The notes: generated by a model not told the origin, from the sequence alone. Positions 26,178-52,010 are shown, counted from the first letter of the stretch. The stretch: 64,000 nt of DNA from an uncultured Gammaproteobacteria bacterium (GCA_964360785.1 CAYHXX010000001.1:9334-73333), one strand, 5' to 3'. Translations and numbers: made by a program.

Positions 26178-26750
26178 TTACTTGGTTGGATTTGGTTGAG
26201 GGTTGCTACGACCAATTTCGTAAAAATAAGTTGGTCCCCAGGGTGTGTTTAGTTCTGGATTTTCGTCAACAAATATTGGTGTCCAGTTTGTAAAAGGAAA
26301 AGAAGGAGCGATTACTAGAGTTCCAGGTTTTAGTTCAGTAAGTAACTTCTCCTCCAGCAATTCATTTGTTTGTTCTGTCAGGTAAATCAGGCAAACTGTC
26401 GCCTCGGAAAGGTCAACATCAAACAAATTTTTATTGAGAAAAGTTACTTTGTCGGAAAGGCGCAGAATAAAGCTTTGGTACAGACTGTAGAAATAGCGGA
26501 GTTTGTCGATCTCGATCCCAACTGCTTTGCAATGGTAGGTTAGTGCGGTAGCGATTGGTATTCGCCCATCCCCGCTTCCCAAATCGTAGAGAATATCCCC
26601 TTCTTTTAGTTTCGCCAAACGCAAAATACGCTCTACCACCGGATGTTCCATCGCAACATACGGGGCGCCATGATCGGAAGCATTGTATTTCCAATATTGG
26701 TAGACGAAAAATCCAATGACGATAGCTATGAGGGCAGTGATTGCGTACAC
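26178..26750 (-). CDS. membrane-anchored class I SAM-dependent methyltransferase
   Basis: N-terminal TM; motif I ILYDLGSGDGRIPI. Confidence 0.7.
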   Translation of the reverse strand: MYAITALIAIVIGFFVYQYWKYNASDHGAPYVAMEHPVVERILRLAKLKEGDILYDLGSGDGRIPIATALTYHCKAVGIEIDKLRYFYSLYQSFILRLSDKVTFLNKNLFDVDLSEATVCLIYLTEQTNELLEEKLLTELKPGTLVIAPSFPFTNWTPIFVDENPELNTPWGPTYFYEIGRSNPQPNPTK

Positions 26751-26761
26751 AACTATTAATA

Positions 26762-26935
26762 TACTACTTCTTTTGTTTCGGCAAAAGAAGTATCAAGAAA
26801 ATCCGACCCTTGCACTTCGTCAGCGGTTGAACATAAGCAAAAAAGCTCGGAAACTTCTGGAATTCCTTAACAGTCAGTTCCAGCTTTCTCTTCGCTTTTT
26901 TACAAGTTCAAAAAGGCTGACTTTGCTAGAGGGCT
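26762..26935. repeat. copy 1 of a hairpin-rich ~175-bp repeat element
   Basis: Shares TACTTCTTTTG..CAAAAGAAGTA hairpin, identical 27-nt core AAAAAGCTCGGAAACTTCTGGAATTCC, GTCAGTTCCAGCTTTCTCTTCGCTTTTT and AGTTCAAAAA..ACTTTGCTA with the reverse complement of 38861..39036. Confidence 0.7.
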
Positions 26936-27042
26936 TTACGCTGCTCGCAATGGCGGTATAAGTTCAAAGACGCTGACTTCGCTATAGGGGTTAATTTTGG
27001 AAAAAAGAAACCGTCGGGGTGGCGACGGTTGTTAGATTCTGA

Positions 27043-27294
27043 TTAGTATCCCAAGTATATAGCCAAGGTGACTGTACTTGCCACAATGCAGAAGATTGTT
27101 GCTTGGTTGGCAGTGAGTTTGGATTTTTTGGCCAGAGTTACACCGATTAGTATGTATAGATCCACTGTTCCAATCCAGAAGTTAAATACATTACTATATA
27201 CAGAGGCTGTAACGAAGCTGGCTAGAGTCATCCCGAGTAGGATGTACATCCATGCCCAGACGTCTCCCCACAATCTTCTACCTAGAGATTGCAT
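27043..27294 (-). CDS. small membrane protein
   Basis: 83 aa, two hydrophobic helices. Confidence 0.35.
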   Translation of the reverse strand: MQSLGRRLWGDVWAWMYILLGMTLASFVTASVYSNVFNFWIGTVDLYILIGVTLAKKSKLTANQATIFCIVASTVTLAIYLGY

Positions 27295-27364
27295 TTCTCA
27301 CCTCCAGACTTCTCCAACTGAGTTTAGCAAATATAGATTTTTGAGTAAAGAAAAACCGCTGTGG

Positions 27365-27820
27365 TCAGTCAGCGGCTGGTGGGGTTTGCTTTGCGGCCTC
27401 GAACTCATGAAGAGCTTGTGCCAAATCATCTATATCTGTGAACAGCTTGCCTTCTTCTATTCTTGCGATTCGAAACGGTGTTGTCACGTTGATTGAGGGG
27501 AAGACAAAACCGTAAACAGGTATCTTGTGTATCTCAGCTAGTATCTGCTCGTTGGTACGGCCGTCTGAAGCAGTTGAGAGGTCGGCAACCACGACATCAA
27601 AGTCGTGTGTTGCGAAGAAATCTTCTACTTCAGCCAGAATTCTTCTTGCTCCCGCATGATCCGTTTTCCAGTCCCTTTCCTCGTAGACTCCTCGGTCCAA
27701 CGCGCTGGTGACATTGAAACCCCGGTTTCTCAACGCATTTACTGCGTATTCGATTCTCTCATTTTGTCCAGGTCTGCCGATGCGGCCGATGACGTAGATC
27801 CGTAGCATGGTCGCCTCCAA
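27365..27820 (-). CDS. hypothetical GC-rich protein, possibly nucleoside 2-deoxyribosyltransferase-like (DUF4406-like) Rossmann fold
   Basis: MLRIYVIGRIGRPGQNERIEYAVNALRNRGFNV pattern; about 57% GC. Confidence 0.3.
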   Translation of the reverse strand: MEATMLRIYVIGRIGRPGQNERIEYAVNALRNRGFNVTSALDRGVYEERDWKTDHAGARRILAEVEDFFATHDFDVVVADLSTASDGRTNEQILAEIHKIPVYGFVFPSINVTTPFRIARIEEGKLFTDIDDLAQALHEFEAAKQTPPAAD

Positions 27821-27987
27821 TCATGCTCGGGATTATAGCAGTAAAGTGTAGAATTGTGAACACAGCTGAGTAATTCCTATAGCTCTTTAATATCCGACTT
27901 ATAACTATTGACAAGAAGTTTGGAAGTGGTTTAGACTAATTGGTAAGGAGGACCTCTGACACTGCCTAGTCACGTTATTTTTAAACC

Positions 27988-28479
27988 ATGAAAATCTCAA
28001 ACCGAGAAATTATTATTGCAGCCATAGCCATCCTAGTACTACTTGGTATAGGATACTTTATAAACAACAATTCCAAGGACAACAAAAAAGAAGAGACCAA
28101 GCAAGAAGACAAGGTAAACTTGGATGACTCTGGTAGTACTGACGAAAACAAGGACGACCAGAGCAAAGACGAAGAGGAAAAAGAAGCCCAAGGTGTCATT
28201 TCGACTGATCCAAAATCCGGTGCTGAGGTTACCCTCGCTTCTGCTCCAAAAGATGTTGTGATCAAGTTTGATAAAGAAATCGCTGGCGGATCAGAAATAA
28301 CGGTAGTTTCAGACAAGAATGTCGATGTCGTGACTGCTGGGAACAAAATCACCGCTGACTTGAAGCAACTCTCTGCGCCAGTGAGTATTTCTGTTGCTGG
28401 TACCTACACAGTAGCCTACAAGATCAACTGGAAAGACGGAACTAAGAGTGACGGAAGCTACAAGTTCACAGTCAAGTAA
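27988..28479 (+). CDS. membrane-anchored secreted protein with D/E/K-rich linker and beta-sandwich-like C-domain
   Basis: N-terminal TM, acidic low-complexity linker, ~90-aa C-terminal domain. Confidence 0.5.
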   Translation: MKISNREIIIAAIAILVLLGIGYFINNNSKDNKKEETKQEDKVNLDDSGSTDENKDDQSKDEEEKEAQGVISTDPKSGAEVTLASAPKDVVIKFDKEIAGGSEITVVSDKNVDVVTAGNKITADLKQLSAPVSISVAGTYTVAYKINWKDGTKSDGSYKFTVK

Positions 28480-28507
28480 GTAAGCTGACTAAATTTGGGC
28501 ATATAAA

Positions 28508-28534
28508 AAGCTCCTTCTGATGAGGGAGCTTTTT
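28508..28534. terminator. bidirectional intrinsic terminator between convergent genes
   Basis: AAGCTCC-10nt-GGAGCTT flanked by an A-run (left) and TTTT (right). Confidence 0.5.
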
Positions 28535-28637
28535 GGTTCTACAGATAAGTTCTTTCGGATATATTTTCGGGAGTTTATTTGGGTCGTGTGGGGCGGCAGC
28601 GTTGCTGGTTTAGCTTTGCTGCCTGCCCCTGAGACCT

Positions 28638-29390
28638 CTACTCCTTCTGAAATTCGCTCGGTGTCCAGAAGACGGTGTCTGTCGGCAGATCAATGTACTC
28701 GGCCATACTCGCAGAAGTGAATCCTGAGTAGTAGTGGCCGTCTGGGGCCATGGTCGATTCGGTAGCTATTGTGACTTTCATGCCGCCGTAGCCGAGTTGC
28801 GCACCTCCGTATTTGCCGATGAACCAGGGATCTCCGGCAGGGCTGCGACGCAAGACGAAATTGTAGGCCAGCTTGGCTTTATCACCTGGCTGGAAGTCGG
28901 GCTTGTAGCGCTCGCCGACTTCTGAGATTCGGAACAGGAGAAACTGCTTGTCGTCGAGCCCGAAATCATAACCCTCGGTATAGACCGACCCTTGTACAAC
29001 ATGGATTGGCAGGACCCAGTAGCCTTTGGTCTGATCGTTATGGCCGTGCAGGGTTGGTTCGCCAATAAGCTGAACGATGTCATGGTCCTGGACGCGATGA
29101 CCCTCGAAAGTGCAGTGCTTGAGAACGGGCATGTCCTTGTAGCAGTCAATCTGACCGGTGCCGAAAACCTCGTAATAGGCGCCGACGACGTACTTTTGCG
29201 TCAGTGCCGGTGTCGTTGCATCAGGCGCTGCTGTTGGTTCTGCACTTAATGCAGTTGTGCCATTGTCCTTGCCTAGGTTCTTCGTATCGTCATGGACGCC
29301 GATGGCAAAGGCAGCGATAAGGACGATTGCCACTACCGCCGCAATGATTCCGAAGACAGCTTCCCCTGGGGTTACCCGTCTTAGTCTCAT
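28638..29390 (-). CDS. GC-rich membrane-anchored secreted hypothetical protein
   Basis: MRLRRVTPGEAVFGIIAAVVAIVLIAAFAIG TM anchor, A/P/T linker, ~200-aa domain; about 58% GC; the antisense ORFs look spurious. Confidence 0.5.
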   Translation of the reverse strand: MRLRRVTPGEAVFGIIAAVVAIVLIAAFAIGVHDDTKNLGKDNGTTALSAEPTAAPDATTPALTQKYVVGAYYEVFGTGQIDCYKDMPVLKHCTFEGHRVQDHDIVQLIGEPTLHGHNDQTKGYWVLPIHVVQGSVYTEGYDFGLDDKQFLLFRISEVGERYKPDFQPGDKAKLAYNFVLRRSPAGDPWFIGKYGGAQLGYGGMKVTIATESTMAPDGHYYSGFTSASMAEYIDLPTDTVFWTPSEFQKE

Positions 29391-29552
29391 AATCCCCTCC
29401 TTGGGCTAGAGTTGATCCTTCCCGATTTCTTGGTTGAATTATAACTTATGGAGTAAAGTTGGAGTAATTAAATTTTAGTAATTTCAATTTTGAGTGTAGG
29501 TAAAAAAGAAGGTTCTCTGAGGCAGCCGAGCTGTTTGCTCAGGATGGCAACC

Positions 29553-30467
29553 TCAGAGTTTAATCTTGCCGTGCGAAGGTGAGCGCCGGCGTTGTCTATA
29601 GGGTTTCCCGTTCTCCTCTTCAACATTGATTGGTGGGCCACTAACTAAATCATGTACATAACCGCAGCAGATGCAGGTCGCGTAGACGCCGTACCAATCT
29701 CTTTCGTGAATCATCGAACCACGACAGCGAGGGCATGTTCGGGGTAGGTTCGTCTTCGGCGGAACTACACCGTTAGAATTCGGTGTGGCGACAGGCTTCA
29801 CCTTTACCGGTGTTGGTTGAATCGGTGCGGGTTTTGGTTCTTCCCAGGCTGGTTTCGGCGCTCGAACTGTTGGACTCGAAGGTACTTGTTCTCGAGCAGT
29901 GGCTTGTTGGAGCATAAGCTCGATCGCTTGCCTTCGGTCCTCTCTACGACGGAACCGTTCCGCTTCTCGTTCCTGTTTCGCTTGCTTTTCGTCCTTCTCT
30001 TGTCGGATTTTCTCCCCGACGCCGAAATCGTCGACCCTGTTTGTGGAAGCAGGTTTTCGCGGAGTTGCACCAAGACGTGGCTTTCCCCTTGGGATCGAAA
30101 ACTCGGCGGCCCACTTTTCGGAAAGAATCAGCGGATCCTCCGTTAGTAGGTTCTGCCAGAGTTGCCAGTTCGGTGCGGTTCGTCGGCCGGGCGAATGTCT
30201 TCTTGTTCGAAAATGGTGTATCGAGATCTTGGGCCCGAGAGCATAGATCTTTCGACTGGACTTTTCACGCACAGCTACAAGCCAGCGCTGACCTTCCTCA
30301 GCAACAGAATCTTCGAAGTAGATTTGGGCGGTTTGGGTAAACGGTCGCCCATACCCAATCATCTCGTAGATAACTGTCAACTCCAATGGGTTGTAACCCC
30401 AGGGATTCGTATCAGCGCACAGGTACAACCCCGGACGTAGGTTCCGAACCAGATTACTGAGACTCAC
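29553..30467 (-). CDS. GC-rich hypothetical protein with C-terminal C4 zinc ribbon
   Basis: CPRCRGSMIHERDWYGVYATCICCGYVHD; R/E/K-rich charged middle; P-rich linker. Confidence 0.5.
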   Translation of the reverse strand: MSLSNLVRNLRPGLYLCADTNPWGYNPLELTVIYEMIGYGRPFTQTAQIYFEDSVAEEGQRWLVAVREKSSRKIYALGPKISIHHFRTRRHSPGRRTAPNWQLWQNLLTEDPLILSEKWAAEFSIPRGKPRLGATPRKPASTNRVDDFGVGEKIRQEKDEKQAKQEREAERFRRREDRRQAIELMLQQATAREQVPSSPTVRAPKPAWEEPKPAPIQPTPVKVKPVATPNSNGVVPPKTNLPRTCPRCRGSMIHERDWYGVYATCICCGYVHDLVSGPPINVEEENGKPYRQRRRSPSHGKIKL

Positions 30468-30574
30468 TGGTCACCTCCTTTCCTCGGGTGCTCTCTCGAA
30501 GTGGAAAAACCTAGGCTGATATTAACAATAATATACTAGGAAAACAATTGTTGAGTTGCGAACGATTATATTTT

Positions 30575-31249
30575 TTATTTTCTGATTCTGATCAGAGAGG
30601 GATTGTCGACTCCTCCACCGGCGCCGGCATACATGCCAAAAAGAAAATCACTGATCTTATACTTGTGTTTGCCTCCCCGCTCGTCCCAAAGCGGATCATT
30701 GACGTAAACGAATTTACGGTCGATTCCGGTGACAACATTAAAATGAAAGTTGAAGCGTGGGTTTTTGGCAAAAAGAAAACTGGAGGTAAGAACTACGATC
30801 GATGGGTTTTTACTCTTTAACTCTTCGCGGATGTCCTCTTCAGTTGGAATTTTTACTTCGACTACTCCCCCATCTTTCATGAACTGCAAAAAGAATTTCA
30901 CCGCTCTTTTGTCGTTCGAAGTTTTGATACCGTATCCAGCAATTGCTTTGCTTTTTGTATTAGAAATTTTTTCTAAGTGGTTTTTTATTTTGTCTTGAGA
31001 AGCACCGATTTCGTTAAGCGTAAAGAGCCCAGGGTTAAAAGTGGTAACTGTTACTTTGAACCCATTTTTGATTAAGAACGAACCCAGTTGAGGACAGTAA
31101 GTTCCAAATTTATCAGCCTCTAAATTTTTCTGGATTTGTTCAAAGGTAAACGGCAGTTTCCAAAACTTTGTAATCATGTTGACCGCAGCAATTCCGCAAT
31201 CAACAGAATCTTTTTCTTGACGAACAATTGGAACGTTTAATGGTTTCAT
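30575..31249 (-). CDS. peptidase C39-like (papain-fold) domain protein
   Basis: VRQEKDSVDCGIAAVNMITKFW catalytic Cys context; start set at MKPLN (31249). The track ORF extends to 31546 through GC-rich foreign sequence and is probably spurious. Confidence 0.6.
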   Translation of the reverse strand: MKPLNVPIVRQEKDSVDCGIAAVNMITKFWKLPFTFEQIQKNLEADKFGTYCPQLGSFLIKNGFKVTVTTFNPGLFTLNEIGASQDKIKNHLEKISNTKSKAIAGYGIKTSNDKRAVKFFLQFMKDGGVVEVKIPTEEDIREELKSKNPSIVVLTSSFLFAKNPRFNFHFNVVTGIDRKFVYVNDPLWDERGGKHKYKISDFLFGMYAGAGGGVDNPSLIRIRK

Positions 31250-31419
31250 TTTGAGGGAATTGTACAGGTAGGTTTGAAAGTTGTCAAAAAGTTTGGGAAA
31301 ATTAATAAGTAAATTAAATGTCAGAGGACTCCCGCCGGGTTCGAAAACCTGGTGGCGGGAGTCCCTGTAGCCCACGTAGTGGTCGCAGAGCGCGGAGCGA
31401 TCTATCTCCGTTCCATGTG

Positions 31420-31962
31420 CTAGTGGAATCGGCTGATGTCGATCACCTGGATGCGTGGATCGCTGCTGCTCTCCTCGTTGTCGTAGTCCACCGGTTGGAA
31501 GTGGAGGTGACGTTCCGGGTTGAAGCTCGGGTGCTTCTCCACCCACTCCCTGTAGGCCTCTTCGTCGTCCTTGGTGATCTCGCCGATGAAGGCCATCTCG
31601 ACCTCGTGCTGGGCTTGCACTCGGAGAGCTCGCAGGCAGTGGAGTGCGAGCAGCTGCATCACTTGGATGGGCTGCTCAGTGAACGCGCCGTCCTTGTATT
31701 TGCGCGCGACCTGGCGGTAGAGATTGAGGACCAACGCTTTGAGCTCGTCGAGGTCTTTCGCGACGACGAACTGATCCACCTCGGGATCGCTGGCTGTTCT
31801 CCGCATCTCCCGGGCGAACGCGTCCTTGTAGTTGGAGTGCGCATAGGCAGCTTCCATCTCTCCGAGCACGATCCCGGGAAAGAAGCTCCAGACGGTGTAG
31901 TGCAGGTCGTACGGGTTTTCCCGTAGCCTTGCCAGGGTGTAGTTTTCCACGGCGGTGACCAT
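31420..31962 (-). CDS. GC-rich hypothetical protein
   Basis: 180 aa of balanced composition; the antisense ORF 31318..31926 is R/V/L-rich and typical of a shadow ORF. Confidence 0.45.
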   Translation of the reverse strand: MVTAVENYTLARLRENPYDLHYTVWSFFPGIVLGEMEAAYAHSNYKDAFAREMRRTASDPEVDQFVVAKDLDELKALVLNLYRQVARKYKDGAFTEQPIQVMQLLALHCLRALRVQAQHEVEMAFIGEITKDDEEAYREWVEKHPSFNPERHLHFQPVDYDNEESSSDPRIQVIDISRFH

Positions 31963-32016
31963 TCCTTTCGTTCCCTCCCTTGCTTCTGAATGATTGATGG
32001 GAATATTTTACCACAC

Positions 32017-32931
32017 TCAGTCTACTATAGGATTTCTTGAAGGTAAAACTCTAACTAACGACCAAGCGGTTTGGGTTGAAGATGGTTTGGTGAAGATTTT
32101 GTAGGACTTAAAGTCCGTTTTTGAGCTGCCAAACAAAAATTGACCAGGATCAGAAATAACCTCAATGTCGCCTACTCCAATGTTTCTTCCACCTTCATAC
32201 CATAAGAAAAAAGGTCCAAAAAAAGTCTTTTCTTGGTTTAAAGAATAGGAAACTGCCCTTGCTTGCTTTGTTGTTGCCAAAGATATGGCCATGCAGTTTT
32301 TTCCAACTCCATAACTATTGGGTTTAGATGCGACTATTCTTATCGCCTTAACCAAGGCTTTTTCTATCTCATCAACAGTATTTGCCTTACGAAGTGATGC
32401 TTGTAAAATCCTTCTGTCGTTTCGATCAAAAGGTTGCGTTGGTGGAATTATGATAACTTGTGGTCGAGATGAATCAAGCGACTCAACTTTAAATTCTTTT
32501 TCGACAGAACCATTAGTTGAGACATTAGAAATAGTTCGAACATATGGTTTAAGGATTGTATCATTTTTCTGTTCCCATCCGGCAATTACGAAAACGTGTC
32601 GTTTTTCTAAATGATCTGGAAAAGTTCGAAACAATTCCGTAGCCTTTTTTGCTAACACTTCAACCGCTATCTGTACCTCAAGTTCGCATAAACCTTCTTC
32701 TTGTATTGTCTCTGTTAACCAATGATCAATCCGCTTATCATTTACCCTACCTATCCCTGCAAAAGTTATTGTTAACAATGCATTCTCACAAGAAAAGACT
32801 AAAGCTTTGTTTGCCTGATCGTTGACGGTAATGCCAGTCGCCATATCAGTAAACATTCGATCTGACACTTGTACTATTAAATTCTTTGTCACCGCAGTTA
32901 AATTTAGTGTCATGCTTGAGAATATTAGCAC
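32017..32931 (-). CDS. hypothetical protein
   Basis: 304 aa, low GC, no motif recognised. Confidence 0.5.
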   Translation of the reverse strand: MLIFSSMTLNLTAVTKNLIVQVSDRMFTDMATGITVNDQANKALVFSCENALLTITFAGIGRVNDKRIDHWLTETIQEEGLCELEVQIAVEVLAKKATELFRTFPDHLEKRHVFVIAGWEQKNDTILKPYVRTISNVSTNGSVEKEFKVESLDSSRPQVIIIPPTQPFDRNDRRILQASLRKANTVDEIEKALVKAIRIVASKPNSYGVGKNCMAISLATTKQARAVSYSLNQEKTFFGPFFLWYEGGRNIGVGDIEVISDPGQFLFGSSKTDFKSYKIFTKPSSTQTAWSLVRVLPSRNPIVD

Positions 32932-32951
32932 TTGGAAAAGGAGCGGGCAAA

Positions 32952-33290
32952 TTATTTTTTCTTGGGGATTTTCTTTTCTACAAATCTGACAAAGTGATAA
33001 GACTTCTCTACGATTGGCCAGGTATTTTCAATCTCCTCAACAGAGGTGATTTCAGCTGTAACCCAAGTCTTTCCAAACTCAAACTTTTCGAAAAAACCAG
33101 TTTCCCTAGCTTCTTCAAAATCCTCTGCCGAAAGACGAAGTAAAAGTTGGAAGAGATTATCGTCGATTTTTTTATACCCACCAAAAAACTTCCTCTCCGG
33201 AGTGTGCGCGATCGTCCAGCCAAATTCTTTGCGCCAGGTTATAGGACCGAGATTTTCGATTTTTTGGATCAAGATTTCTTCAAGTGACAT
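32952..33290 (-). CDS. hypothetical protein
   Basis: 112 aa, low GC. Confidence 0.45.
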   Translation of the reverse strand: MSLEEILIQKIENLGPITWRKEFGWTIAHTPERKFFGGYKKIDDNLFQLLLRLSAEDFEEARETGFFEKFEFGKTWVTAEITSVEEIENTWPIVEKSYHFVRFVEKKIPKKK

Positions 33291-33403
33291 GTGAGTAACT
33301 TAACACTTTGAAAAGAAGTGGGCAAATAAGATAAAAGAAACTCCCGTCGAGGTTTGCTCGGACGGGAGTCGGTGGTTCTTACATATGTTGCTGCGTTGAG
33401 TCT

Positions 33404-33751
33404 TCAGGAAACGATCTCCTCGTGGCTCGATTCGGTCGGCTTCGTCTCGCCGATAACCGGTGGTGCGTCCTTGCTGATTGTCACCGGAGTCGTAAGGCCC
33501 TCGTACTCGAAGACCAGTTCGACCTTGTGGTTCTCGGCAAGGCGGATGTCCACAAGACTTGACCATTCGAGGCGGTACAGCACGACGCTGCCGAGGGTGG
33601 TTCCCTTGTACCTCAGGATGTTGCCGTTGGCCTGATGCAGGCTGTAGCGAACGCCTTTCCGTACCCACGTCACGACGCCGTGAATGATTTTCGCCTGAAA
33701 ATGGGCGGCGACTTGATCGGTCCACTTCTCTTCGAGCAGAACTGTTGCCAT
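33404..33751 (-). CDS. GC-rich hypothetical protein, paralog A of 36410..36760
   Basis: KW..QVAAHFQAK / LAENHKVELVFEYEGLTTPVTISKDAPPVIGE aligns with KW..EVAGHLQAE / IAGHKVALVFKRDGHKRMVTISKDSSPVIVGE. Confidence 0.5.
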   Translation of the reverse strand: MATVLLEEKWTDQVAAHFQAKIIHGVVTWVRKGVRYSLHQANGNILRYKGTTLGSVVLYRLEWSSLVDIRLAENHKVELVFEYEGLTTPVTISKDAPPVIGETKPTESSHEEIVS

Positions 33752-33770
33752 GACGCCCTCCTTCGCTGTG

Positions 33771-34223
33771 CTAGTTGCTGAAGAACTCGCCGAGCATCGT
33801 ACCGCCGGGTACGATCTTGGCGAACAAGTCAGTCGTACTCTCGTCCCGGTGCTGGCTGTGGCAGATTGGGTGGATTGCCGGTGGTTGGTTGAACAGCCTA
33901 CCGATGGCTACCTCAGCCCGTTTGATCTCTGCCAGACCAGCGCGATTGGCCGGATTGTTGTTGTCCCTCGATAGGACCGTGACGATGTGCAGAACCCTTC
34001 CAGTCGGAAGGTGGCCGAAGATGACCCCTGCCTGGACTTCCCGCTTGCGCAGTTCGTCCATGAATGCACCCGCGGCCCGTGTGAGAGTGTCGGCCCGGTC
34101 CTCGCCGACCCCGACTTCAACCAGCTTCTGCTGTAGCCAACTGATTCCGTGAAAGACCAAGATGACCTCCTGCTTCCTGCAGATCCCTGCTGTGGGGTGC
34201 TTTCTTTGCAGCGATTTTAGCAA
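33771..34223 (-). CDS. GC-rich hypothetical protein, operonic with paralog A
   Basis: 150 aa; 20-nt gap to the downstream gene; the antisense ORF is spurious. Confidence 0.45.
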   Translation of the reverse strand: MLKSLQRKHPTAGICRKQEVILVFHGISWLQQKLVEVGVGEDRADTLTRAAGAFMDELRKREVQAGVIFGHLPTGRVLHIVTVLSRDNNNPANRAGLAEIKRAEVAIGRLFNQPPAIHPICHSQHRDESTTDLFAKIVPGGTMLGEFFSN

Positions 34224-34623
34224 TATTGTTGGATTTAGGCAAATAGAGCTACATTTTTTTGAAATTGAGAAAAAAAGAATTGCCGCCGATCAACAGGGAG
34301 AGTGACCGGCGGTTCGAAGACACTGATTCGAGATAGCCGTGCGCCCAGTACGTTAGGCGATCTTGCCGTTCTCGAAGAACAGGTGCGCAGTCAGAACGAC
34401 GCCAAATGCGGTGAGGAGGACGAGAGCCTTCTCTACCGTACTGAGTCTTTGCGGTTGAAACCGTTCGGATGACTGATCCCTCATGGAAATTTCTCCTGCT
34501 AACTCCCTGCAGGGATAATTATATTTATTTTTCGTTTGGAAATAAATGGACAATTAAAGCGGATTAAAAAGTGGGTTGTGATCTCTCTCCGGAGAACACT
34601 ACCCGAAAGCTGAGTTTCGCTAG

Positions 34624-35073
34624 CTACATTGGATACTCCTCAGCTTCCTCTTCCCGTCGTTTATCAAGAGCAAAGAGTTCAAATGAACGCCGAACATTCT
34701 TCGCAATCTGTTTCGGATCCTTACTGCTCTCGCATTTGAAGCCATGCCACCTGCGATACTTTTCGCGTGCCTCTGGAGTAATGATTCCGGTGGTCGCCAC
34801 CAAAGTTATCACAAAATGGGGCTCTTTCCTTTCGATGTGACCAATCGCCCACTCGATATCAGTTTGTGTAATCTGTTCATTAATACAGACCCAGACCATC
34901 CCATCTTTGTTTACAACAATGATCTGTGGCCCACGTGCTAAACCAGATTGAATCTGTATATTCAGATCTGTGGTCTGTAGTTCTCTGGCAATACTTCGGA
35001 TACGAGCTGGTAAGCTCATATCAGCTGGGATGCCAGGGAGCATGAGGACAAGAGTGTCGAAGAACCGAGGCAT
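34624..35073 (-). CDS. hypothetical protein
   Basis: 149 aa; acidic C-terminus. Confidence 0.4.
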   Translation of the reverse strand: MPRFFDTLVLMLPGIPADMSLPARIRSIARELQTTDLNIQIQSGLARGPQIIVVNKDGMVWVCINEQITQTDIEWAIGHIERKEPHFVITLVATTGIITPEAREKYRRWHGFKCESSKDPKQIAKNVRRSFELFALDKRREEEAEEYPM

Positions 35074-35192
35074 CAGACTCCTCCTTCTGAAAGTAGCGAT
35101 CTCTGGTTCGCGAGGTGAGATTATATCAAATTGGGAAAAAGAAAGACTCCCTTTGGTTTACGCCGTGGGGAGTCTGAGATCTCTAGTTTGTT

Positions 35193-35561
35193 TCATTTGC
35201 TGATTACTCTAAACCGTTTGGACCTTTCCCGATGTTGCCATCTGAGTCTGTGCCACTCGTATTTTGACCAAAGACACGACAGCAGTGTCACCGTCAGAAT
35301 GAACACTGGTAGAACTATGGTCGGGATGACGAAATTGGCTGTCCATTGAAAATGCGTTGTTGGGAACAACAGTAGAACTGTTCCGACATAAGCTGGTCCA
35401 ATAATGAATAGTGCAATTCCACTGATCAATATGTCGCCCGTCTTCCAGAAAGCAACCGATTGTCTGATCTTTCGAATTCTCCCACTCTGTCCTGTTCGGT
35501 TGCGGCGATTACTCTTGAGCAGACGAAGCGTTGGTTTGGGTTGCTGATTCCCATAACCCAT
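35193..35561 (-). CDS. small membrane protein
   Basis: 122 aa, two TM helices, basic N-terminus. Confidence 0.35.
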   Translation of the reverse strand: MGYGNQQPKPTLRLLKSNRRNRTGQSGRIRKIRQSVAFWKTGDILISGIALFIIGPAYVGTVLLLFPTTHFQWTANFVIPTIVLPVFILTVTLLSCLWSKYEWHRLRWQHRERSKRFRVISK

Positions 35562-35678
35562 GAATCACCCTCCTCTTTTTTGTCTTTGGTTTTTATATGT
35601 TAGCACTGGGGAAAGAAGTGGGCAAATTTATAAATAAGAAAAAGAAAGACCCCCTTGGTTACCCGTAGGAGTCTGTGG

Positions 35679-36254
35679 TCAGTTGATAATCGTGCCTTGA
35701 GCGTTGATTGGCACTTGGACCGATCTTACTTGAGATTTTCTACTTTTTCTTGTTCGCGATCTTCTCCTGTTGTTTTCAAACATTTTTTTCGGAAAGACTC
35801 CAGCAGAGATACTCAGGAATACTCTATCCAGGCTGGGGTATTTCGTTGTCGATCTTTCCATCAGTTTCCAGAAGCCCTTGATATGTTCGTTTAGCATTTT
35901 GCCAAGTATTGTCTTTTGTACATGCAGCGGTAGATTTGACAGGACAATAATGGCAACCGCTACTGCGTGGGCATAAGCTATTTGGTGCGGAACTGAGTTG
36001 TTTCCTGGCATCGCGCTGTAGAACATGTGATAGCAGTGTTCCACATGGTCCTTCAAATCTTCGACAGGTAACGCTAACAGTTTCGGATCGCCCGCTATTT
36101 CCTTTCTGGTTTCTTGAAGGCAGCCAGCAATTTCTGGTGTATCAAGTGTTTCTTGTTTCCAATTGACCCGAGGGAACTTTCGGCGCACCATAGCCAGGAC
36201 GGGTGTTGGGTCAGACAAGAGACTGACGAGAGTGTACAGCTTGGGTGGTGGCAT
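35679..36254 (-). CDS. hypothetical protein with basic C-terminal tail
   Basis: 191 aa; C-terminal RRRSRTRKSRKSQVR. Confidence 0.4.
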   Translation of the reverse strand: MPPPKLYTLVSLLSDPTPVLAMVRRKFPRVNWKQETLDTPEIAGCLQETRKEIAGDPKLLALPVEDLKDHVEHCYHMFYSAMPGNNSVPHQIAYAHAVAVAIIVLSNLPLHVQKTILGKMLNEHIKGFWKLMERSTTKYPSLDRVFLSISAGVFPKKMFENNRRRSRTRKSRKSQVRSVQVPINAQGTIIN

Positions 36255-36409
36255 CCTATTCCTCCGTGAACTCGTCCTTTCGTGATGAGGATTTTATCAC
36301 ATCTTATAATTCATAGTAAATTGGAGAAGGATTTTAGAAATGAAAGAAGGGAAGGTCCGGTGTGGATCTTCCCTTTGGGGTGCAGAGCTGGGTGTTGGTT
36401 TCACGAGCT

Positions 36410-36760
36410 TTAGGAGACAGTACCCTCTCTGCTGGTCGGTGTTGCTGGTGGTTCTCCAACGATGACCGGCGAGCTGTCCTTGCTGATCGTCACCATTCGC
36501 TTGTGGCCATCACGTTTGAAGACCAGGGCAACCTTGTGACCGGCGATCCAGAGGATTTCCGTCAGGCCTTCCCAGTTGAGGTCACTGAGGCTGGATCCGG
36601 ACGTGGTGACCTCGGTTAGGGAGACACTGTCGCCGGTTCGGTCCAGCGCGGTGTGAACTCCCTGGTGATCCCAGCGGATCCTGCCGTTGGAGGTTTCCGC
36701 CTGCAAATGGCCGGCGACCTCCATCCACTTACTTGCGCGTTCTTCAGGCGTCATTTGCAC
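36410..36760 (-). CDS. GC-rich hypothetical protein, paralog B of 33404..33751
   Basis: See paralog A alignment. Confidence 0.5.
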   Translation of the reverse strand: MQMTPEERASKWMEVAGHLQAETSNGRIRWDHQGVHTALDRTGDSVSLTEVTTSGSSLSDLNWEGLTEILWIAGHKVALVFKRDGHKRMVTISKDSSPVIVGEPPATPTSREGTVS

Positions 36761-36890
36761 TTACTCCTCCTGCTAATATCGTTCCGTTAGGGGCTATTTT
36801 AGCATATAGTTAATAAAAATGGGATTTACTTGAGGATCTTGGCAATGAATTTGTGGGTTGAAACAACCATGTAGAGTGTTGTTTTCCTGA

Positions 36891-37433
36891 TTAGTCCCAA
36901 AAGATCGGGTCAGAGATAAACGGGCCAAAAGCAAAAATTATTCCGTGTGAATAAGCTAGATCGCGAGGCAGGTGCTTGTTGCTGATTAGACCCATCACAC
37001 CTTCCTCCTGATAAATATTTGGGTTACCCGAAAGCCCAATCACAACGTCTCTTAGTTCTTTTCCAGCCAAAAGTTGCTTGGAGATTTTGTCTGATACCTG
37101 CCAGTGTGCTGAAGTACCCAGTCCCAGATTACCTTTCCTATCGACTACGGCAATCCAGCCACTTTCGAACCAGCGCTCCCCCACTTTGTGCATGCCACCT
37201 TCCATACCGATTGCATAATCTGCTTTGGTTTTTTTCAGCGCGTTTTGGGCGCGGTTTATTGCTCCTTTCAGGCTTATTTCAGCAGACTTGGGTTGATTAT
37301 CTACACCGGAATCAACTTCAACTCCTGTTACTTTAGTTCCAGGGAAAAGTTTATCAATGGCTAGTTGGGCGGCACGAATCTTGGCCTCATTTGTACTGCC
37401 GACAACGATTTTCATCCTATCTTCTTGATCCAC
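36891..37433 (-). CDS. non-canonical purine NTP pyrophosphatase-like (YjjX / inosine-xanthosine triphosphatase family)
   Basis: MKIVVGSTNEAKIRAAQ..., WFESGWIAVVD; true start probably the internal MKIVV. Confidence 0.65.
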   Translation of the reverse strand: MDQEDRMKIVVGSTNEAKIRAAQLAIDKLFPGTKVTGVEVDSGVDNQPKSAEISLKGAINRAQNALKKTKADYAIGMEGGMHKVGERWFESGWIAVVDRKGNLGLGTSAHWQVSDKISKQLLAGKELRDVVIGLSGNPNIYQEEGVMGLISNKHLPRDLAYSHGIIFAFGPFISDPIFWD

Positions 37434-38187
37434 TGATCAAAAATATTTTTAATTTCAGCTAAATGTTCTGGTGCTTGGAAAGTGTGGGGTGCACCCTTGA
37501 TTACATGAAGTTCTTTTTTGTCACCTGGAATTGTTTCAAAAAGCACCTGTGACTCATAGAGATGTTCGTCTTTTTCGCCAACAATCAAAAGTACTGGCAT
37601 GGTTAATTTTTCTGCTTGCGGAAGCAAGTCATATTTCATCCGATCTTCAATATGAGACCATTTCAATTTCTTGATTAAACCAGGAATGGACCCACTTTTT
37701 TGTTCTCGCCAACCAGTTTTCTCCCATTGTTCAGCTACCCTTTTGTGGCGCGGGGTTTCAACACTTAACTTTCCGGAAACAACTGTTGAAATTGGGGCTA
37801 AGGCTTTTACCAGTTCAGGATGACGTTCGGCGTACAAAGCAGTTGAAATTCCTCCAAGACTGTGACCGGACAGGCAAAAAGGTTCTTGATACCAGCTTTG
37901 GGTTTTCGCCAGCTAATGACATCTTCGAGATCTTCGTAATAATTTGTTGTGGTGGCATCCGCGTAATCTCCCTCGCTTTCACCATAAGTATTGGTAGTAT
38001 CAAATCTGATAACTGTGTAGCCGGCGTCAGAGAAAGCTTTGGCAAAGGTTTCGATGTGAGGTTGCTCTTTGAAACCGCCTAGTCCGTGGGCTACGAAAGC
38101 AAGGCCTTTTTGGTTCTCGGCCTTCTCAAGAATTAAAACAATCTTTTGCTTTTTGCGGTTTTGGATCGTGATTTTTTCCATAATCAA
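37412..38187 (-). pseudogene. alpha/beta-hydrolase gene disrupted by a 1-nt frameshift
   Basis: N-half (ORF 37807..38187: VAHGLGGFKEQPH...EDLEDVISW) and C-half (37412..~37900: AKTQSWYQEPFCLSGHSLGGISTALYAERHPE... with GHSLGG nucleophile elbow) lie in frames offset by -1 at ~37895-37905 (att agc tgg | gcg aaa). Confidence 0.6.
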
Positions 38188-38636
38188 AGGTTGAGTTCCT
38201 GTCTGGAGTTTTCTGGAAAGTTCACTACATCAAAAAGGACAAATTGGGTTGGTTTGATTTTGTAAAACCGATGTGGTTTATCCTTTAAAGCCATAAAGTC
38301 GGCAATTTGTCTTTTTGAAAATATTCTTTTGGTAAAGAGTAGAATTGCTTGGGAAACATCTTTTGGACTTGAAACTATTTCAGCTATTCCCTGCAATTGC
38401 AAACCTCGAGGTGGATCAGCTGGAGTGTGAGGAAGGACAATAGCCGCGGCGACCTTATTATTCTTTTCAACTTCTTTGGAATGTCGGCGTGAAGTTGCGG
38501 AAAACCAGTAAATGTTAAGATCGGAGTCAGCGGCAAACCAAACATTGCAAACCCAAGGTTGATCGTTCACTGAAGTAGCTAGCTGCATAAGCTTGGCCTC
38601 ATTTAAGTAGTCTTTAATTAACTGTTTCAAATTCAT
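38184..38636 (-). CDS. pyridoxamine 5'-phosphate oxidase-like FMN-binding split-barrel protein
   Basis: LMQLATSVNDQPWVCNVWFA...; 150 aa. Confidence 0.7.
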   Translation of the reverse strand: MNLKQLIKDYLNEAKLMQLATSVNDQPWVCNVWFAADSDLNIYWFSATSRRHSKEVEKNNKVAAAIVLPHTPADPPRGLQLQGIAEIVSSPKDVSQAILLFTKRIFSKRQIADFMALKDKPHRFYKIKPTQFVLFDVVNFPENSRQELNL

Positions 38637-38860
38637 ATTACGTAGACGTTAGTAAAAGGGTTTTCATGGAAATATTTTACCACCTTTGGCAGCAAAGGTG
38701 GCACCAAACTGCCGCAAAACTGCGCGTGCTAGAAAGATTTAAGTCACTCAAGCAAAATTGCAAACTCATCCGCCGGTTGGCGGACTCAAACAAGCAATTT
38801 GTGCTAATTCGCTTGGTCAAATCTTTCCTATACGCATGCTCGTAAAGCGGGGCTGAAATG

Positions 38861-39036
38861 CCTTAGCAAAGTTGGTGTTTTTGAACTAGCTAAAAAGCGA
38901 AGAGAAAGCTGGAACTGACCCGCCAGCTGGCGGGGAATTCCAGAAGTTTCCGAGCTTTTTCGCGTAGCTTCAAAAGCCAACACAGCGGAGGCTCTGCTTT
39001 TCTTGTTACTTCTTTTCGCAGAAGCAAAAGAAGTGG
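38861..39036. repeat. copy 2 (inverted) of the hairpin-rich ~175-bp repeat; contains an extra perfect palindrome CCCGCCAGCTGGCGGG
   Basis: Reverse complement matches 26762..26935 block-for-block; the 27-nt core is identical. Confidence 0.7.
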
Positions 39037-39037
39037 A

Positions 39038-39394
39038 TTAAAACAGTTTTCCTCCAATTTTTGCATCGTGGTCAGCCTTGCCTGCCGGCAGGCAGGGTCG
39101 TACTAATACTACTCTCCCCTGCTCATCCGGTACGCCCAGTGTCAGGCACTCAGATACAAATGGTCCGATTTGTTTGGGTGGGAAATTCACTACTCCAAGC
39201 ACAAGTGTGCCTGTGAGCTCATCCTTATTATATAGTTCAACTATCTGGGCACTACTCTTTTTAATCCCGATTTCACTTCCGAAATAAATTTCTAGTTTGT
39301 AAGCTGGTTTACGAGCCTCTGGAAAATCCTCGACCTTAACTATCTTTCCAACCCGAATTTCGACCTTAGAGAAATCTTCGTAGTTAATTTTCAT
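39038..39394 (-). CDS. tRNA-binding domain protein (CsaA/Trbp111/EMAP-like)
   Basis: MKINYEDFSKVEIRVGKIVKVEDFPEARKPAYKLEI... Confidence 0.8.
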   Translation of the reverse strand: MKINYEDFSKVEIRVGKIVKVEDFPEARKPAYKLEIYFGSEIGIKKSSAQIVELYNKDELTGTLVLGVVNFPPKQIGPFVSECLTLGVPDEQGRVVLVRPCLPAGKADHDAKIGGKLF

Positions 39395-39924: not shown

Positions 39925-41169
39925 ATGTCAGCAACTGGGTTAGTCCTGTCGACCGACCAATCGGACAGCAAAATAGTTGATATATATACAAAAGGTGAGC
40001 ACAAGTCGCACCTTGTGTCGGCATGGTTGCCGATCCGTCGAATCAATGCCTTGAGGCAGATGCGCACGACATTTGACCCGGAAGAGTTGCGGAGTCTGGC
40101 AGATAGCATCACTGTCCAGCATCTGCTCCACCCACTGGTGGTGGCGCAATTTACCTCTGAACAGGCACTTGAGCACCTGCGGGTTATAAACAGAGCTTGG
40201 GGAACACACTACACAATCAACGACCTCAAGGCTACCGAGACTGAGGAGGGTTTGTTCTACTTCATTCTGGCAGCTGGGGAAAGAAGGTTGCGGGCAGTCC
40301 TATGGCTTTGGGAAAAAGGTTGCGAAGCTCATCGTGAAGAATATTCTCCGCAACCGGTTCCAGAAGGTTTCTGTTACATCAGTCACTTTGGAGACGACAG
40401 GATTCCGGTAAGAATCCGCACGGACGCAACTCCAGATATCGTACTAACAGTACAACTGGTAGAAAACACAGCGGTCCTGCCGCTACCACACGAAACTGCA
40501 ATGGCCTTTTCGGAGTACCACCCGATTTGGCAAGTATTCAACCCGAAAACAACTCTGAAAGATTTTGCCAAACAGGTGAATCGTTCATCAAGTACAGTCA
40601 GCGATTACCTGCGTTATGCCAAGCTTCCGGAATCGATCCACGAAGAAGTAAAGCAAGGGCTCATCCCATTCGGGATTGCGGTAGAGATCTCTCGTTTGCA
40701 CGAAGACGGTATGGGTGAGGAAGAGCTGGGATATTGGGTGTTGAAGGCCAAGGCCGGCAACTTCCCGATCCCGGACTTTCGTGAGATGGTCTCAAACACA
40801 CTCAAGGAAAGACACTCCGGACAAACAAGCATGTGGGATATGATGACGGCAAACGCTGTCGCCGCTGCCAACATGCAAGATATCCGACTGATACTGGAAC
40901 GGCAGCAAAGCCGTGGGTGGCACGTTGCGATTGGGGTAAGAAAGCGAGTGATAGCGCTGGTGAGAGATGGAAAACTGGGATTTAGAGACTCGCCCTTCTC
41001 CTCGAGAAGCGTAGTCAGACAGATGCGAATCGATCTCGAACTAGCTCGAGAAGAGAATGAACTTCTCAAACACTTGCTCGGTGCAGAAGGTTACCAGCAA
41101 GCTACTGAGATACTGGCAGAGCGGGATAGCCTGACTTTGCAATTATTTGAGAGAGCGGAAAGAGAATGA
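39925..41169 (+). CDS. ParB/Srx-like nuclease-domain protein
   Basis: GGAGGGAGG RBS; LPIRRINALRQ..ELRSLADSITVQHLLHPLVV...FILAAGERRLRAV (ParB N-domain box II-like); GC-rich. Confidence 0.65.
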   Translation: MSATGLVLSTDQSDSKIVDIYTKGEHKSHLVSAWLPIRRINALRQMRTTFDPEELRSLADSITVQHLLHPLVVAQFTSEQALEHLRVINRAWGTHYTINDLKATETEEGLFYFILAAGERRLRAVLWLWEKGCEAHREEYSPQPVPEGFCYISHFGDDRIPVRIRTDATPDIVLTVQLVENTAVLPLPHETAMAFSEYHPIWQVFNPKTTLKDFAKQVNRSSSTVSDYLRYAKLPESIHEEVKQGLIPFGIAVEISRLHEDGMGEEELGYWVLKAKAGNFPIPDFREMVSNTLKERHSGQTSMWDMMTANAVAAANMQDIRLILERQQSRGWHVAIGVRKRVIALVRDGKLGFRDSPFSSRSVVRQMRIDLELAREENELLKHLLGAEGYQQATEILAERDSLTLQLFERAERE

Positions 41170-51938: not shown

Positions 51939-52010
51939 TGTCAAACGCTAAGGCGTTTCGCAAGTAGGAACTAGTCAAACGCTAAGGCGTTTCGCAAGTA
52001 GGAAATAGTC
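51939..52010. repeat. 2.2 tandem copies of a 34-nt unit GTCAAACGCTAAGGCGTTTCGCAAGTAGGAA(C/A)TA, each with an AAACGC-taag-GCGTTT hairpin
   Basis: Read directly; 32 nt upstream of the TRASH-ABC operon start codon. Confidence 0.7.

Follow-up and report, generated by a model that had tools for sequence, protein, structure and literature searches.

What are the two inverted, hairpin-rich repeats that lie 12 kb apart in the 64-kb stretch of DNA studied here (CAYHXX010000001.1:9334-73333; hereafter, the window)? A first-pass annotation had read them as brackets around a composite mobile element or an invertible segment, or as members of a family resembling REP sequences or miniature inverted-repeat transposable elements (MITEs). 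Our analysis comes closest to the last of these. The repeats appear to be paralogous copies within a small, lineage-specific family of palindromic elements, situated on the promoter side of genes in groundwater Saccharimonadales, with hairpins that most likely act in cis; we put the probability of this reading at roughly one half. As to the host, contigs from Hainich well H52 (0.1-μm filter fractions) encode proteins 100% identical to those flanking the repeats, and the closest named homologue of the flanking methyltransferase comes from a 'Candidatus Saccharimonadales bacterium' metagenome-assembled genome.

The two repeats, at 26762-26935 (plus strand) and 38861-39036 (minus strand), are indeed inverted copies of about 175 bp, sharing 77% identity over 172 nt by blastn (E 4e-33), and no match elsewhere within the window is comparable to this left/right pair. 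Both contain the same 27-nt block (AAAAAGCTCGGAAACTTCTGGAATTCC; 26840-26866 and 38934-38960), the same 28-nt block (GTCAGTTCCAGCTTTCTCTTCGCTTTTT; 26873-26900 and 38892-38919), and an AU-rich hairpin (26765-26792 on the left and 39006-39036 on the right), so that the hairpin, the 27-nt core, and the other identical blocks described at first pass were all found in both copies. The perfect palindrome ascribed to the right-hand copy, CCCGCCAGCTGGCGGG, is also there, at 38919-38934, and is absent from the left one. Divergence between the copies is uneven, the two blocks being identical at 54/54 positions compared to 78/109 in the rest of the repeat (Fisher p 9e-7). The first-pass annotation had overlooked a 31-nt direct duplicate at 26957-26987 and had ended the left element too early, since this element reaches ∼26956. 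It had also missed a third, diverged copy (38680-38852, minus) touching the right one, which came to light when the sequence separating the right copy from PNPOx was read. Small open reading frames (ORFs) spanning the repeats (26716-26961, plus; 38890-39066, minus) were rejected as coding sequences, as an 8-nt indel between the copies breaks the frame.

Each element measures 175 to 195 bp as a whole and is composed of a long irregular hairpin of ∼130 to 160 nt (HP2), a spacer of ∼10 nt, and a short AU-rich hairpin (HP1) with a stem of 10 to 11 bp. The elements of the window, their parts, and their immediate surroundings are as follows.

26765..26956, minus: left element (member 1), in the same direction as the methyltransferase gene; HP2 at ∼26803-26956, then HP1
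26765..26792, minus: HP1 of the left element, TACTTCTTTTG-CCGAAA-CAAAAGAAGTA
26840..26900, no strand: apical arms of the left copy, equal to right copy 38892-38960 except for the loop; an A-tract and a T-tract flank the inner hairpin
38860..39036, plus: right element (member 2); HP2 at 38860-38992 with apical palindrome CCCGCCAGCTGGCGGG, HP1 at 39006-39036
38680..38852, minus: third element (member 3); HP2' at 38712-38852 with apical hairpin TCCGCCAACCGGCGGA, HP1' at 38680-38701 (CCACCTTTG-CTGC-CAAAGGTGG)
26957..26987, minus: duplicate of the left 5' basal arm, outside the element; 26/31 identical to 26901-26931
27001..27030, minus: canonical intrinsic terminator of the upstream 83-amino-acid (aa) ORF, from a terminator scan; separates this ORF from the left element

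The loci of relatives were obtained by fetching contigs with genes for close homologues of the DOT1-like methyltransferase (26178-26750, minus). In three of them, L032, L033, and L034, whose methyltransferases are 89%, 86%, and 78% identical to that of the window, an element lies directly upstream of the orthologous GTG start. The layout is the same in each, with a long hairpin, a spacer of ∼10 nt, a short hairpin, and a TATAAT-like box 6 to 8 nt (∼9 nt in L034) before the start codon. No partner copy was found on these three contigs, which reach at most 1.6 kb upstream. The orthologous elements are highly diverged in sequence and were missed both by blastn and by a covariance model (R1) trained solely on the left and right copies, which was too sequence-specific and found no additional copy. 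Blocks in common with the left copy include CCGCC-NTTGCGAGCAGCGT (5' base) and GCAAGG-GG (3' base), and the base of the left element (CCGCCATTGCGAGCAGCGT / GCAAGGGTCGG) is homologous to those of L032 and L034.

A MAFFT alignment of all five members included in it was structurally inconsistent, and RNAalifold retained only HP1 from it; we instead used an alignment of the third copy, L032, and L034, which has 77% mean column identity and shared base, spacer, and HP1 blocks. Its consensus structure comprises 45 pairs, with 94.8% of the cells paired. Changes on both sides were found at 15/45 pairs, compared to 6.0 ± 1.8 in column shuffles (0/500 of which reached 15) and 0 to 1 in slid controls, a count that rests on three sequences and is therefore suggestive in depth, not in breadth. 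A second covariance model (R2), trained on these three sequences only, recovered two untrained members, namely, L033 (38 bits, E 7e-9) and, at full length, the left copy (17.7 bits, E 2e-3 in 64 kb, filters off); the right copy gave a weak full-length match (38855-39034, plus; 4.7 bits). With filters off, R2 found no copy beyond the three in the window and none in addition in ∼100 kb of the relatives' loci. We conclude that the three copies in the window form a homologous family of six members with L032, L033, and L034 and that orthologues of the left copy reside at the same site in sister lineages. PNPOx orthologues were also tried as anchors for the third and right copies and were discarded, as elsewhere this gene stands in unrelated contexts with no element upstream. 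Two independent contigs from a relative with 89% identity (L030, positions 1-33, and L031, positions 1-17) start inside or just after HP1 upstream of the methyltransferase, and the palindromic element thus appears to break short-read assemblies.

Pairing is preserved throughout the family. All six members have a long imperfect palindrome as HP2, and folding z scores relative to shuffled sequence range from -3.8 to -4.8 for the left and right copies on either strand and from -3.4 to -4.8 across all members (-61 kcal/mol and z -4.8 for the left element; -70 kcal/mol and z -4.3 for the third). When the left copy is compared with the right one, two pairs differ on both sides, five on one side in a wobble-compatible manner, and none is broken; apical HP2 is identical, and the changes fall in the basal stems. 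Pairing in both hairpins has thus been maintained by compensatory change. The right copy, the third copy, and L032 all have a GC-rich apical mini-hairpin, which is therefore ancestral; the left copy has lost it.

The other recurrent feature is the promoter. In the left copy, the sequence TATATT/TATTAAT at 26755-26763 is followed by the methyltransferase GTG at 26750; the tip of HP1 carries a -35-like TTGCCG, the 3' arm of HP1 forms the promoter spacer, and the motif TTGCC[CG]-N15-TATATT is located at 26758-26784. The methyltransferase promoter of the element-free relative L022 reads TTGCCT-N17/18-TATAAT-N6-GTG, and those of L035, L026, and L029 are similar. With or without an element, a TATAAT-like box lies 6 to 8 nt (at one locus, ∼9 nt) before the start codon, and this spacing by itself indicates that the methyltransferase mRNA is probably leaderless. 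HP1 abuts the -10 box in every gene-associated copy, with the -35-like box inside HP1 in the left copy, and HP1' of the third element runs directly into TGGTAAAAT and the PNPOx gene region. The position of the element is therefore fixed on the promoters of two different genes, those of the methyltransferase and of PNPOx. The right element, whose 5' end abuts that of the third in a back-to-back arrangement, has its sense strand on the plus strand and faces the 3' end of csaA, its HP1 stopping 1 nt before the csaA stop codon (39038-39040). It shows only weak promoter-like boxes, pointing into the csaA 3' end, and an ORF scan of the window revealed no plausible plus-strand ORF downstream of it.

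A related promoter without the large hairpins, TTGCCC-N17-TAAnnT-N6-8-ATG with a small dyad in the spacer, precedes other genes of the enclosed segment as well as PNPOx in L036, and HP1 looks like an expanded version of this small spacer dyad. Written out as ATTTGCCC-ACTT..AAGT-G-TAAnnT (-35 TTGCCC, 17-nt dyad spacer, -10), the motif occurs at 32925-32952, 33300-33327, and 35600-35627 (minus) and at ∼575-610 of L036. At two of the three sites in the window, an ATG follows after 6 to 8 nt; at 35600-35627, none lies within ∼40 nt. This recurrence suggests that many genes here may be leaderless and served by one promoter type common to several species. Behind the third element, a 9-codon mini-ORF (ATGAAAACCCTTTTACTAACGTCTACGTAA; 38637-38666, minus) starts 6 nt after a TAAAAT box and ends in TAATATG, overlapping the PNPOx start region; this is a possible leaderless upstream ORF with coupling to PNPOx. 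For PNPOx itself, homologues favor a 150-aa start at 38636.

How would such elements have arisen, and what would they do? The right copy is an intragenomic duplicate of a left-type element, lying back-to-back with the third copy and lacking a gene of its own. Its apical arms match those of the left copy perfectly although between species these arms show little conservation, and the simplest explanation would be gene conversion. The family as a whole would be inherited mostly vertically at fixed sites, with occasional duplication or loss and never as the terminus of a 12-kb segment. The compensatory pairing changes suggest that the hairpin itself matters as a single-stranded nucleic acid. It would most likely act in cis at the promoter, with HP1 built around the -35 box and spacer and HP2 lying upstream as an insulator or a block that forms structure. 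Like ERIC and Correia elements, HP2 would do so as RNA, in the form of a hairpin within read-through transcripts, or as DNA, in the form of an extrudable cruciform. A bolder version of this proposal, which we regard as rather doubtful, is that of a previously undescribed promoter-coupled element of candidate phyla radiation (CPR) bacteria, in which the two hairpins would gate initiation or read-through, as RNA or as a supercoiling-sensitive cruciform, and paralogues would be kept aligned by conversion.

Folding energies point weakly to a preferred strand. The sense strand, defined by the direction of the downstream gene, folds better in 6/6 elements, and the consensus folds give -40.5 versus -31.7 and -43.8 versus -35.0 kcal/mol for sense versus antisense.

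Several observations weigh against a promoter-side element acting through its hairpins. G-U counts differ only modestly (12 versus 9 and 8 versus 5), and a structure-free comparison of the arms gives 12 G-T versus 12 A-C. The left copy and the L032 element lie directly behind a canonical terminator or T-rich tail, which makes their routine sense-strand transcription doubtful, and a consensus scan found no promoter upstream of HP2. The position of the -35 box relative to HP1 varies across members. Presence on the methyltransferase tree is patchy: the element is kept at the methyltransferase site in four lineages (proteins 78 to 89% identical) and missing from at least five similarly close lineages interleaved with them, a distribution that fits repeated loss as well as mobility, and three copies are seen in 64 kb. 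Template-switch repair of a DNA quasi-palindrome could, moreover, give compensatory change without selection.

This last process is at the heart of the alternative that fares best, in which the elements are neutral relics, that is, functionless duplicated quasi-palindromes upstream of promoters, with pairing produced by template-switch repair and identical arms by gene conversion. It would account for the equal wobble-type mismatch counts (12 versus 12) and the consequent lack of strand bias, for two copies that have a terminator on one side and a promoter on the other, in DNA that is apparently not transcribed, for the several close relatives without an element, and for a right copy that has no gene to serve. 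It does not readily explain why four lineages have kept the element at one and the same site even though its sequence has changed up to the limit of detection, nor the extent of pairing (94.8%, with 15 double changes) or the consistent placement of HP1 on the promoter. We consider this alternative unlikely.

Could the elements instead be MITEs, active at present or until recently and mobilized in trans, by a transposase from another part of the genome? Long imperfect palindromes, located between genes in either orientation, present patchily among close relatives, and duplicated at least once within the genome (left/right), would be expected of such elements, and the relatives' contigs L030 and L031 break inside HP1 as contigs do at repeats and palindromes. 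On the other hand, no target-site duplication was recognizable at any of the six copies (the ends of diverged copies are not sharply defined), the three copies in 64 kb are strongly diverged from each other, and orthologous copies occupy the same site. A Pfam scan of 30 ORFs (24.9-44.3 kb) revealed no transposase, and an exact search with a core 20-mer in 185,579 GTDB species genomes and in the JGI metagenomes gave 10 matches of 20 to 22 nt in unrelated taxa, as expected by chance. A gapped two-arm pattern likewise had 0 matches in IMG/VR, and the right and third copies gave none in phage or plasmid collections by blastn in distant mode. The MITE/REP-like label of the first-pass annotation is thus correct insofar as we see a small intergenic family of imperfect palindromes in a variable region; the target-site duplication, partner transposase, and numerous dispersed copies that would go with it could not be demonstrated from the window and the relatives' loci, and mobility of this kind seems quite unlikely.

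Highly doubtful, too, is the view that the elements are genes for two or three paralogous small RNAs of ∼180 nt that act in trans or bind protein. Strong covariation, the consistently more stable sense strand, G-U pairs that are invariant at two positions in three members, and apical arms identical between paralogues, as for a shared binding partner, would all agree with this. But consensus scans detected neither a promoter upstream of HP2 nor a U-tract terminator after HP1, and no promoter or terminator consensus bounds the element. Rfam 15 gave no family at gathering score in the whole window and, at E values of up to 5 to 10, only noise for the left copy, the right/third locus, and two orthologous loci. 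The apical sequence is also not conserved between species, and several relatives have no element. Readings as 6S RNA, signal recognition particle RNA, or a riboswitch were rejected, as there was no model match, no large central bubble, and no conserved loop.

That a 12-kb composite transposon or invertible segment ends or recombines at the inverted copies deserves hardly any credence: identical tracts of 27 to 28 nt could support rare homologous inversion, and regional gene content varies among relatives, but no recombinase is found, a single orientation is seen, genes inside the bracket are conserved in synteny, orthologues in related contigs show the left copy to be older than the right one, and the third copy breaks the two-end picture.

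The details behind this dismissal are as follows. No transposase, integrase, invertase, or recombinase was found by the Pfam scan or by a PHROGs search of 10 segment ORFs, as the first-pass annotation had said of transposases and integrases. Ten assembled contigs from several samples cross a repeat (six the right one and four the left one); all match the reference junctions at 100% over repeat and flanks, in only one orientation and with no recombinant or hybrid junction. Both repeats lie, arranged as in the window, on one 27-kb contig (Hain_H52_01um_R2_925). The outer flanks of the pair (...CTATTAATATAC on the left and GGATTAAAACAG on the right) have only the short palindromic ATTAA in common and show no clear direct repeat. 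Within the bracket, two groups of genes can be distinguished.

27043..28479, no strand: h83, h151, and CopC, inside the bracket yet syntenic with the methyltransferase in relatives, and hence not accessory
28600..36800, minus: lineage-specific, accessory-like block of ten ORFs without a tblastn homologue in the fetched loci of relatives

CopC, h151, and h83 stand beside the methyltransferase in L022, L028, and L029, and CopC does so in L034 as well (tblastn); the orientation of CopC relative to the methyltransferase is the same in all four. The block at 28.6-36.8 kb contains the GC-rich ORFs, one ORF with a C39 peptidase domain, and nine without a credible Pfam match, and its edges coincide with no repeat copy. 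Since conserved genes lie inside the bracket and ORFs without homologues are confined to ∼28.6-36.8 kb, the variable DNA is not delimited by the repeats. A comparison with relatives, suggested at first pass, thus bore out the variation in gene content and not the role of the repeats as its boundaries. Across relatives, the region between ClpB/ParB-like/CutA/CsaA and the methyltransferase differs in its genes: L022 has a different 7-kb gene set, L028 is without CutA and CsaA, and in L034 and L035 GNAT and DUF84 NTPase genes adjoin the methyltransferase. We conclude that a 12-kb mobile or invertible segment bounded by the repeats is not supported, on the mobile side given the lack of a recombinase, the syntenic genes, and a left repeat that is orthologous at the same site, and on the invertible side given the single orientation in ten contigs, the conserved CopC orientation, and the lack of an invertase. 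The annotation of this island, tempting but wrong, was removed.

Returning to the promoter-side palindromic family, its closest counterparts in behavior and form are the ERIC/IRU and Correia-type elements, by analogy and with no claim to membership in a named family. ERIC/IRU sequences of enterobacteria are imperfect palindromes of ∼127 bp that are found between genes in either orientation, in tens to hundreds of copies, and typically cotranscribed with flanking genes. The elements described here resemble them as noncoding, intergenic imperfect palindromes of 100 to 200 bp that occur in either orientation, patchily at orthologous sites, and without recognizable hallmarks of transposition. They differ in number, with three copies in 64 kb, of which two follow a terminator, and in the fusion of gene-associated copies to the promoter via HP1; the likeness concerns form, and no similarity of sequence would be expected. 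Correia elements of Neisseria (CREE/NEMIS) are ∼100 to 155 bp long, with 26-bp terminal inverted repeats, TA target duplication, and hundreds of copies; they can supply promoter boxes at their ends, change the expression of adjacent genes, and form long RNA hairpins. Palindromic structure, intergenic location, and promoter boxes at the end of the element are shared with our family, whereas the 26-bp terminal repeats, the TA duplication, and the hundreds of copies were not found here.

Other comparisons are more distant. As in REP/BIME sequences, there is an extragenic palindrome with a conserved hairpin; those are, however, 20 to 40 bp long, high in copy number, and associated with RAYT, in contrast to 175 to 195 bp, three copies in 64 kb, and no Y1 transposase in the Pfam scan. 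Integron attC sites also conserve structure over sequence and lie between small co-oriented ORFs of unknown function, but the core order here is GTTGAAC...GTTCAAA rather than RYYYAAC...GTTRRRY, no IntI was found in the Pfam-scanned region, and there are three sites, two of them opposite in orientation, rather than one per cassette; core-site order and the lack of IntI rule the attC reading out. With bidirectional intrinsic terminators, the elements share an inner hairpin flanked by A5-6/T5-6 (left and right copies) and an A-rich 5' and a U-rich 3' arm (all members). Unlike in such terminators, the hairpin is far longer and more irregular, the base beside the T-tract is weak, and the consensus scan did not call it; the left copy, moreover, already lies behind a canonical terminator.

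The family would thus be a lineage-specific palindromic intergenic repeat, unusual in its tight fusion to promoters of apparently leaderless genes and in its CPR host. Its structure is conserved, and the noncoding DNA of its host group, Saccharimonadales, is almost unexplored. A role of the hairpins in modulating promoter use or read-through would place them among the first cis-regulatory structures known from CPR bacteria. As selfish or neutral palindromes they would still have their use, marking breaks in metagenome assemblies and illustrating the turnover of intergenic DNA in very small genomes.

The remaining features concern the genes around the repeats. The enclosed ORFs are on the minus strand with the sole exception of CopC (27988-28479, plus), and GC content alternates between 0.37 and 0.59 in 500-nt windows, both in agreement with the first-pass annotation. 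The frameshifted pseudogene it listed corresponds to an alpha/beta-hydrolase in two overlapping ORFs (37412-38187, minus), with the N-terminal part at 37807-38187, the C-terminal part at 37412-37837, and an overlap of 31 nt. The same split was called in four metagenome contigs that fully cover the junction, indicating that it is fixed in the population and is not an assembly error. Two hypothetical proteins of the lineage-specific block, 115 and 116 aa long and without a Pfam match (33404-33751 and 36410-36760, minus), are paralogous, with 41% identity (E 1e-19).

Adjoining the right and third copies, a 414-aa protein (39925-41169, plus) has only weak matches to ParB_N and HTH_ParB. It is kept beside CutA/CsaA in L022, where there is no repeat element, and a parS-like role of the elements toward this ParB-like protein was discarded, as L022 has the protein without any element.

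Other small repeats were seen in the window. Two tandem 34-nt units (GTCAAACGCTAAGGCGTTTCGCAAGTAGGAAMTA) that are 97% identical, each with a small hairpin, lie at 51940-52007. The sequence GAAAAAGAAAGACNCCC..GGTTT occurs in three intergenic copies (35135-35159, 35638-35662, and 42610-42634), which on the minus strand resemble hairpin-plus-T-tract terminators. Finally, the 750 nt upstream of the methyltransferase in L028 (9250-10000; GCA_035480955.1) have no called gene and can be read as an ORF rich in Cys, with repeated CxxC-like codons, that may encode a zinc-ribbon protein missed by annotation.

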